Shown in pieces: positions 14,015 to 14,147 of a DNA stretch of 64,000 bases. The stretch's first letter is position 1, and each line of letters begins with the position of its first letter. The stretch comes from Escherichia coli. GTDB taxonomy: Bacteria; Pseudomonadota; Gammaproteobacteria; Enterobacterales; Enterobacteriaceae. The notes beneath the pieces were generated by a model. The model made no database searches, was not told where the DNA came from, and saw only the letters and a program-made list of their open reading frames with translations. A program made the position numbers and the translations under genes. Location of the stretch: NCBI RefSeq assembly GCF_003334335.1, contig NZ_QOWQ01000023.1; one strand, 5' to 3'.

Positions 14015-14050
14015 GATGCTCTCCCAAATATGAAATCTCTTGCTGGCATT

Positions 14051-14065
14051 ACAAGAATCATGCCA
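14051..14065 (-). promoter_or_regulatory. candidate sigma54 (-24/-12) promoter of pspG
   Basis: Minus strand TGGCATGATTCTTGT (GG-N10-TTGT spacing as in pspA promoter); adjacent IHF-like AATCAATAGATTA at 14071..14084. Confidence 0.6.
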
Positions 14066-14147
14066 AAAATAATCTATTGATTTAACAGCAAAACGCCCCG
14101 CGACGGTGCGCAGGGCGTGGTGAATTTGACTACTTTTTGGTGAAAAG

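Follow-up and report, generated by a model that had tools for sequence, protein, structure and literature searches.

The dusA-pspG intergenic region of Escherichia coli: placement of a known enhancer-dependent promoter and of a predicted dusA terminator

Introduction

In Escherichia coli, dusA and pspG follow each other on the same strand, separated by a short intergenic region that holds the control elements of pspG. The question raised by this locus is where the PspF enhancer of pspG is placed. A sequence-only reading had argued from a gap of about 130 bp that the enhancer must lie at or inside the 3′ end of dusA, thus proposing an unusual regulatory overlap with a housekeeping coding sequence. 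That pspG has a sigma-54 promoter controlled by PspF and IHF is already known, and has been on record in both the literature and EcoCyc since 2004. The original description of pspG, by Lloyd and co-workers in that year (J Biol Chem 279:55707), reportedly established its dependence on sigma-54, PspF and IHF, as well as its negative control by PspA. The promoter analyzed here shows no difference in kind from the published E. coli pspG (yjbO) promoter: it is found at the same locus, with the same 17-mer, TTGGCATGATTCTTGTA, and the same regulators, sigma-54, PspF and IHF. Our analysis concerns the arrangement of these elements relative to dusA.

The dusA-pspG locus and the genomes compared

The window analyzed, i.e., the whole stretch of 64,000 nucleotides, includes the E. 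coli dusA-pspG locus at positions 13700-14400 (100% identity). All 5426 of the complete E. coli genomes examined carry this locus, with pspG annotated as such in each of them. The PspG product scored 90.1 bits against the NCBIfam equivalog TIGR02975 (cut-off, 53.7 bits), in agreement with the name given to the gene from its sequence, and the DusA product scored 581.8 bits against TIGR00742. The pspG start codon (ATG, 14014-14012, minus strand) and the dusA stop codon are separated by 133 bp (14015-14147), and the features identified in and around this gap are listed in Table 1.

Table 1. Features of the dusA-pspG region, in the direction of transcription (positions in the window)
Feature	Position	Strand	Basis
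dusA stop codon, TAA	14148..14150	-	ORF list, annotation
Upstream half-site, TTTTCACCA	14138..14146	-	Conserved block TTTC[A/G]C[C/T]A; 1 bp after dusA stop
Predicted PspF-type enhancer dyad, TAGTCAAATTCACCA, centre ~-86	14118..14132	-	Dyad scoring, conservation, likeness to pspA
Predicted intrinsic terminator of dusA: G+C-rich stem of 10 bp with a 6-nt loop (14093-14118), followed by TTTTGCTGTT	14083..14118	-	Terminator scan
IHF-type box, AATCAATAGATTA, -43 to -31	14070..14082	-	Perfect WATCAANNNNTTR match
Sigma-54 -24/-12 element, TGGCATGATTCTTGT, GG at -25/-24, GT at -13/-12	14051..14065	-	Exact match
Predicted pspG transcription start	14039	-	25 nt upstream of ATG; Bonocora 2015 rule
pspG Shine-Dalgarno sequence, GGGAGAG	14019..14025	-	Read from sequence; mean column conservation 0.90, 72 species
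pspG coding sequence, 80 aa (stop included)	13772..14014	-	ORF and translation, annotation, TIGR02975

For comparison, we fetched 80 Enterobacterales loci encoding PspG; dusA was the upstream neighbor of pspG in every one of these with enough sequence. Column conservation is expressed as the mean modal frequency over 72 species. In the alignment, the conserved blocks after the dusA stop codon appear in the order TTTC[A/G]C[C/T]AAAA; (T/C)(A/G)GTCAAATTCACCAC; a hairpin followed by a T-run; (A/T)ATCAA-N4-TTA; and TGGCAYG-N4-TTGTAAT.

Two further observations concern the pspG transcript. In Salmonella enterica subsp. arizonae and diarizonae (loci L016 and L033, ~1432-1500), the 5′ leader of pspG exceeds that of other Enterobacteriaceae by about 30 bp; the extra sequence, CTGAGTAGACCCGGTAAGCGC...CCGCCGGGCAATTCC, has the look of a REP-type palindrome and is located between the promoter and the Shine-Dalgarno sequence. 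At the other end of the gene, the MG1655 annotation assigns the pspG 3′ untranslated region to the small RNA PspH (13605-13715 of the window, minus strand), which sponges the sRNA Spf and possibly has its own promoter (Melamed et al. 2016). PspH ends at a bidirectional terminator (13614-13636) common to the convergent gene qor, and a search of positions 13400-14400 against Rfam returned only sub-threshold ctRNA-like matches, located on this pspG/qor terminator.

The sigma-54 core promoter

Using a pattern search, we recovered at the same coordinates the sigma-54-type element that had been proposed from the sequence. Relative to the consensus TGGCAC-N5-TTGCW, which has GG at -24 and GC at -12 with fixed spacing, the element TGGCATGATTCTTGT is correctly spaced, and its -12 dinucleotide is GT instead of GC, as in pspA. 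The proposed resemblance to the pspA promoter also held, since the pspA element, TTGGCACGCAAATTGTA, has the same unusual TTGT at -12. The bare sigma-54 pattern occurs three times in the 64-kb window against an expectation of 1.0, and at least three occurrences were obtained in 10 of 100 shuffles; by itself, the string is thus within chance expectation. Nevertheless, we take the pspG site as real because of where it lies, how well it is conserved and what published experiments have shown.

Regarding conservation, about 75 of the 80 species have the sequence TGGCAYG-N4-TTGT upstream of pspG, and the mean column conservation of the -24/-12 element was 0.91. The strict pattern fails in five species (L027, L053, L062, L071 and L080), four of which (L053, L062, L071 and L080) have TTGA or TTGG at -12. 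In the fifth, Citrobacter werkmanii (L027), TGGCATG is replaced by TTGTCATG, which could be a natural promoter-down variant.

Regarding the published experiments, which bear out the assignment to a pspA-type sigma-54 promoter, Bonocora et al. (2015, PMC4591121) reported by ChIP-seq an intergenic sigma-54 site for pspG, OS40, which is the same 17-mer TTGGCATGATTCTTGTA (PSSM 10.745, FAT 15) and carries the flag 'C', i.e., experimentally confirmed in EcoCyc. In that study, most E. coli sigma-54 ChIP sites were transcriptionally silent under standard conditions, and of the genes preceded by an intergenic sigma-54 site, just five, pspG among them, rose in expression when sigma-54 was overexpressed; the regulator is given there as 'pspA and pspG by PspF'. 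Additionally, the Salmonella homologue, TGGCATGATTTTTGTAAG, is bound by sigma-54 in ChIP-chip, and in gSELEX the dusA/pspG spacer is among the DNA selected in vitro by the RpoN holoenzyme (50-58%). Based on the rule of Bonocora et al. (2015), which places the start 19 bp downstream of the motif centre and gives 'Distance 25' for pspG, transcription is predicted to start at the position listed in Table 1, in agreement with the count made on the sequence with GG at -24.

The T at -12 deserves a separate comment. GT in place of the consensus GC is found at both PspF-regulon promoters (that of pspG in the window, and that of pspA at positions 612-628 of L002), and it is near-invariant upstream of pspG in about 75 species. 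Among the intergenic sites of PMC4591121 that were compared, TTGT is common only to pspA, pspG and one antisense site. It may represent a promoter signature specific to the PspF regulon.

The two other occurrences of the pattern in the window, both TGGCAY-N5-TTGC strings on the plus strand, are intragenic. One (20569-20583) is in the sense orientation inside an 827-aa ORF, probably plsB (20328-22811), and the other (59490-59504) is antisense inside a 439-aa ORF, probably aceA (58539-59858). Both strings are missing from the main-text ChIP tables of PMC4591121, and they were treated as chance matches.

The genomic SELEX study cited above also lists the dusA/pspG spacer as a target of NtrC (58%; MG1655 U00096.2, position 4260864). 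We know of no role of NtrC at pspG.

The IHF-type box

The IHF-like sequence suggested to lie directly upstream of the core promoter was found there as a perfect WATCAANNNNTTR match, AATCAATAGATTA, which ends 4 bp upstream of TGGCA and whose position is conserved among the loci. Within the box, CA and TTA are invariant, and the mean column conservation is 0.80. By sequence and position, this predicted site thus has the place of the IHF site in the PspF regulon, between the UAS and the core promoter. In Brenneria (L081, ~1360-1392; L083, ~1335-1368), the hairpin between enhancer and promoter encloses the IHF box, TCGCTGATAAATCAATAAGTTATCAGCGA, so that one and the same DNA there forms both the IHF site and the terminator-like stem.

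The PspF-type dyad and the upstream half-site

In the 79 loci having a promoter match, we scored dyads of the form T[AG]GTC-N5-[CG]AC[CT]A, for a maximum of 10. All 79 contain a dyad scoring 8-10, e.g., TAGTCGTTTTGACTA in Brenneria, and the dyad of the window, TAGTCAAATTCACCA, reaches 10 of 10. Its mean column conservation is 0.91, compared with 0.63 at the synonymous third positions of dusA. The same motif is located 73 and 93 bp upstream of the pspA TGGCA in four taxa (TAGTGTAATTCGCTA, TGGTGTAATTGACCA, TAGCGATATTCACCA and TGATGAAATTCGCCA), these being E. coli and three others; the PspA homologues found were almost exclusively from E. coli and from relatives at the Salmonella level. Since both this motif and the AATCAA box recur at the pspA control regions, we read the pspG dyad as a putative PspF UAS, located upstream of the core promoter as is characteristic of the PspF regulon. 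When the pspG enhancer block was searched as an nhmmer profile against 65 kb (the window together with the pspA region), it matched itself with E = 9.5e-9 and the pspA UAS only weakly, with E = 0.91; the motif being short, the equivalence of the pspA and pspG enhancers rests on the dyad scoring and the fixed positions.

The block next to the dusA stop codon, TTTTCACCA, has a mean conservation of 0.83. It repeats the right half of the dyad 20 bp upstream, with this exact spacing in 61 of the 72 species. The left half that would complete a second dyad would cover CGT-TAA of dusA, where none of the five consensus positions match, and we therefore regard this block as a half-site only. Judging from its sequence, it probably contributes to PspF binding.

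One full dyad plus a half-site fits the published description of a single UAS at pspG. According to Mehta et al. (2013), with whom Huvet et al. agree, both pspA and pspG have UASs to which PspF binds, with two UASs and a ~100-fold induction at pspA and one UAS and a ~20-fold induction at pspG (Mehta et al. 2013). In the literature searched for the coordinates of the pspG UAS, a search that the 2004 primary papers lay outside, we found only statements that a UAS exists.

Spacing of the elements across genera

The distance from the dusA stop codon to TGGCA is 80-84 bp in every Enterobacteriaceae genus; that from the promoter to the pspG ATG varies from 50 to 85 bp. In Enterobacteriaceae, the dyad centre lies 60-61 bp from TGGCA in 73 loci (62 bp in one more), and the IHF box starts 17-18 bp from TGGCA (19 bp in one). 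The corresponding distances are 68-70 and 27 bp in Brenneria and Biostraticola, and 82 and 28 bp in Yersinia and Rahnella. The distance from the dyad to the IHF box is accordingly either 43 or 54 bp, the latter being also that of pspA, and the spacing shifts in the distant genera come in steps of about 10-11 bp. Such steps would be expected if the enhancer, the bend and the closed complex must keep their faces of the helix.

A hairpin between the dyad and the IHF-type box

The terminator scan identified, between the dyad and the IHF-type box, a hairpin with the composition of an intrinsic terminator: a stem of 10 pairs, 8 of them G-C, a 6-nt loop and a TTTT tail. RNA folding gave this hairpin in the MFE structure as well as in the centroid structure (z = -3.1). 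Across 71 distinct sequences, 97% of the alignment cells are paired, and in 8 of the 10 pairs both partners have changed. The hairpin has a covariation score of 0.404 compared with 0.178 in shuffles, none of 500 shuffles scored as high, and controls with slid partners gave 0.07-0.13. Based on this structure and covariation, we read the hairpin and its T-run as the probable intrinsic terminator of dusA.

Alternatively, the hairpin could be a DNA-level element of the pspG promoter, such as a cruciform or a protein site, or a tolerated spacer. Its exact location between the enhancer and the IHF box, the constraint on its length along with the fixed 60-61 bp spacing, and the Brenneria hairpin that encloses the IHF box itself are all compatible with such a role, which we nevertheless consider improbable. 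Compensatory substitutions keep the stem paired, whereas the loop sequence drifts (mean conservation, 0.49). Many of the pairs are U-G, and only when read on the dusA-sense strand; the opposite strand, or a cruciform arm, would have A-C mismatches at these positions, from which we infer that selection acts on the dusA transcript. The T-run that follows the hairpin is 0.94-0.99 conserved (mean over GCGTTTTG, 0.87). Finally, the hairpin lies upstream of the predicted pspG start, and is thus absent from the pspG mRNA.

Given the location of this terminator between the enhancer and the IHF box, dusA transcripts would extend past the enhancer and terminate some 40 bp upstream of the sigma-54 core promoter. 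A tentative extension, which we hold to be unlikely, though somewhat less so than the DNA-level role just discussed, is that dusA transcription through the enhancer tunes PspF occupancy or pspG inducibility by interference, or that the terminator is retained for its insulation of a tightly silent promoter against read-through. If so, the rigid helical-turn spacing would reflect a three-way constraint imposed by enhancer, terminator and bend.

The 3′ coding end of dusA

The possibility that the PspF enhancer is located inside the dusA coding end, with the housekeeping gene doubling as regulatory DNA, is suggested by the shortness of the gap and by the conserved half-site, whose first base is only 1 bp away from the stop codon of dusA; the footprint of PspF would probably extend over this stop codon and a few more codons. 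Additionally, Mehta et al. (Buck laboratory) deleted a 226-bp region as 'PpspG', which exceeds the length of the gap, so that the working definition of the promoter extends into a flanking gene.

We looked for an enhancer inside dusA as synonymous-site conservation in its last 10, 20 and 30 codons and found none: the normalized third-position entropy was 0.74, 0.73 and 0.72 of the maximum, respectively, no lower than the 0.58-0.81 observed in windows over the preceding 110 codons. Because synonymous sites vary as freely here as elsewhere in the gene, we conclude that no control site is embedded in the dusA coding sequence. On the other side of the stop codon, there is a fully conserved pspA-type dyad at a fixed 60-61 bp from the promoter, and the second dyad that would have covered the stop codon lacks its left half. 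An enhancer within the coding sequence is, therefore, very improbable.

Of the earlier proposal, the estimate of the gap stands, and the placement of the enhancer at or inside the dusA 3′ end is only partly borne out, as both the dyad and the half-site are within the gap. The supposed overlap with a housekeeping coding sequence is contradicted by the normal synonymous variability of the last 30 dusA codons. The enhancer adjoins dusA without entering its coding sequence. The true overlap is with the dusA 3′ untranslated end, where the enhancer comes first and the predicted terminator hairpin next, with the IHF box beyond it.

Proposed mechanism

Taking these results together, we are highly confident that the 133-bp gap holds a complete, already described enhancer-dependent pspG promoter, made up of the sigma-54 element, the PspF dyad and the IHF box, with the probable dusA terminator nested among them. 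The sigma-54 holoenzyme, whose binding is published, would form on TGGCATGATTCTTGT a closed complex that, as is general for this family, should be unable to open alone. PspF would act as an AAA+ enhancer-binding protein that PspA, from what is known of the family, keeps inactive until the inner membrane is stressed. PspF is then expected to occupy the dyad TAGTCAAATTCACCA, about 86 bp upstream of the start, probably assisted by the half-site after the dusA stop codon. IHF, if bound at AATCAATAGATTA (-43 to -31), would bend the DNA and thereby bring PspF into contact with the closed complex, and ATP hydrolysis by PspF would open the promoter, with transcription predicted to begin about 25 nt before the pspG ATG, near 14039. 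As its structure, covariation and position suggest, the dusA terminator may serve as a spacer and insulate pspG from read-through.

Lloyd and co-workers reportedly found that induction of pspG is lost in rpoN or pspF mutants. That pspG is instead expressed mainly by dusA read-through or from a sigma-70 promoter, the sigma-54 string being as inactive as the intragenic sites, is hardly credible, even considering the chance-level count of the bare pattern and the silence of most sigma-54 ChIP sites (PMC4591121), as the minus strand of 13500-14500 yielded no sigma-70-like site, a strong conserved predicted terminator separates dusA from pspG, pspG is one of the five genes raised by sigma-54 overexpression and is listed as PspF-regulated (PMC4591121), and it is 20-fold inducible (Mehta et al. 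2013).

Comparison with pspA and other enhancer-dependent promoters

The pspG control region resembles that of pspA (pspABCDE) in its -24/-12 element with T at -12 (TTGGCACGCAAATTGTA in pspA), in the (A/T)ATCAA box placed 17-19 bp before TGGCA (AATCAA at 19 bp in pspA), in enhancer dyads that fit T(A/G)GT-N7-(A/G)C(C/T)A, and in the 20-bp spacing of the repeats, which in pspA are ATTCGCCA...ATTCGCTA. Unlike pspG, which has one full dyad at 60 bp and a half-site, pspA carries a pair of dyads (at 73 and 93 bp), the distal one overlapping the start of the divergent pspF gene. The distance from the dyad to the IHF box is one helical turn less in pspG (43 bp) than in pspA (54 bp), the reported induction is lower, as described above, and only the pspG spacer carries the predicted terminator of a neighboring gene.

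In IHF-assisted sigma-54 promoters such as glnHp2 and nifH, the elements are arranged in the order enhancer, IHF bend and closed complex. The pspG elements follow the same order, and the 10-11 bp steps imply a similar face-of-helix dependence. In contrast to these promoters, the pspG layout is very compact, with a control region of about 110 bp and an IHF box 4 bp from TGGCA.

Conclusions

As a discovery, this locus carries little weight, since the feature is real, was correctly named and is already known. Our additions are minor: the placement of the dyad and half-site relative to the dusA stop codon, the covarying nested hairpin that we read as a terminator, and the spacing rules over 79 species. 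Their main use is a correction, namely that the enhancer is not inside dusA. The locus also offers a worked example of an enhancer-dependent promoter that shares about 110 bp with what is probably its neighbor's terminator, the spacing changing by whole helical turns, and as such it could be of service to promoter annotation or to the design of compact sigma-54 parts.
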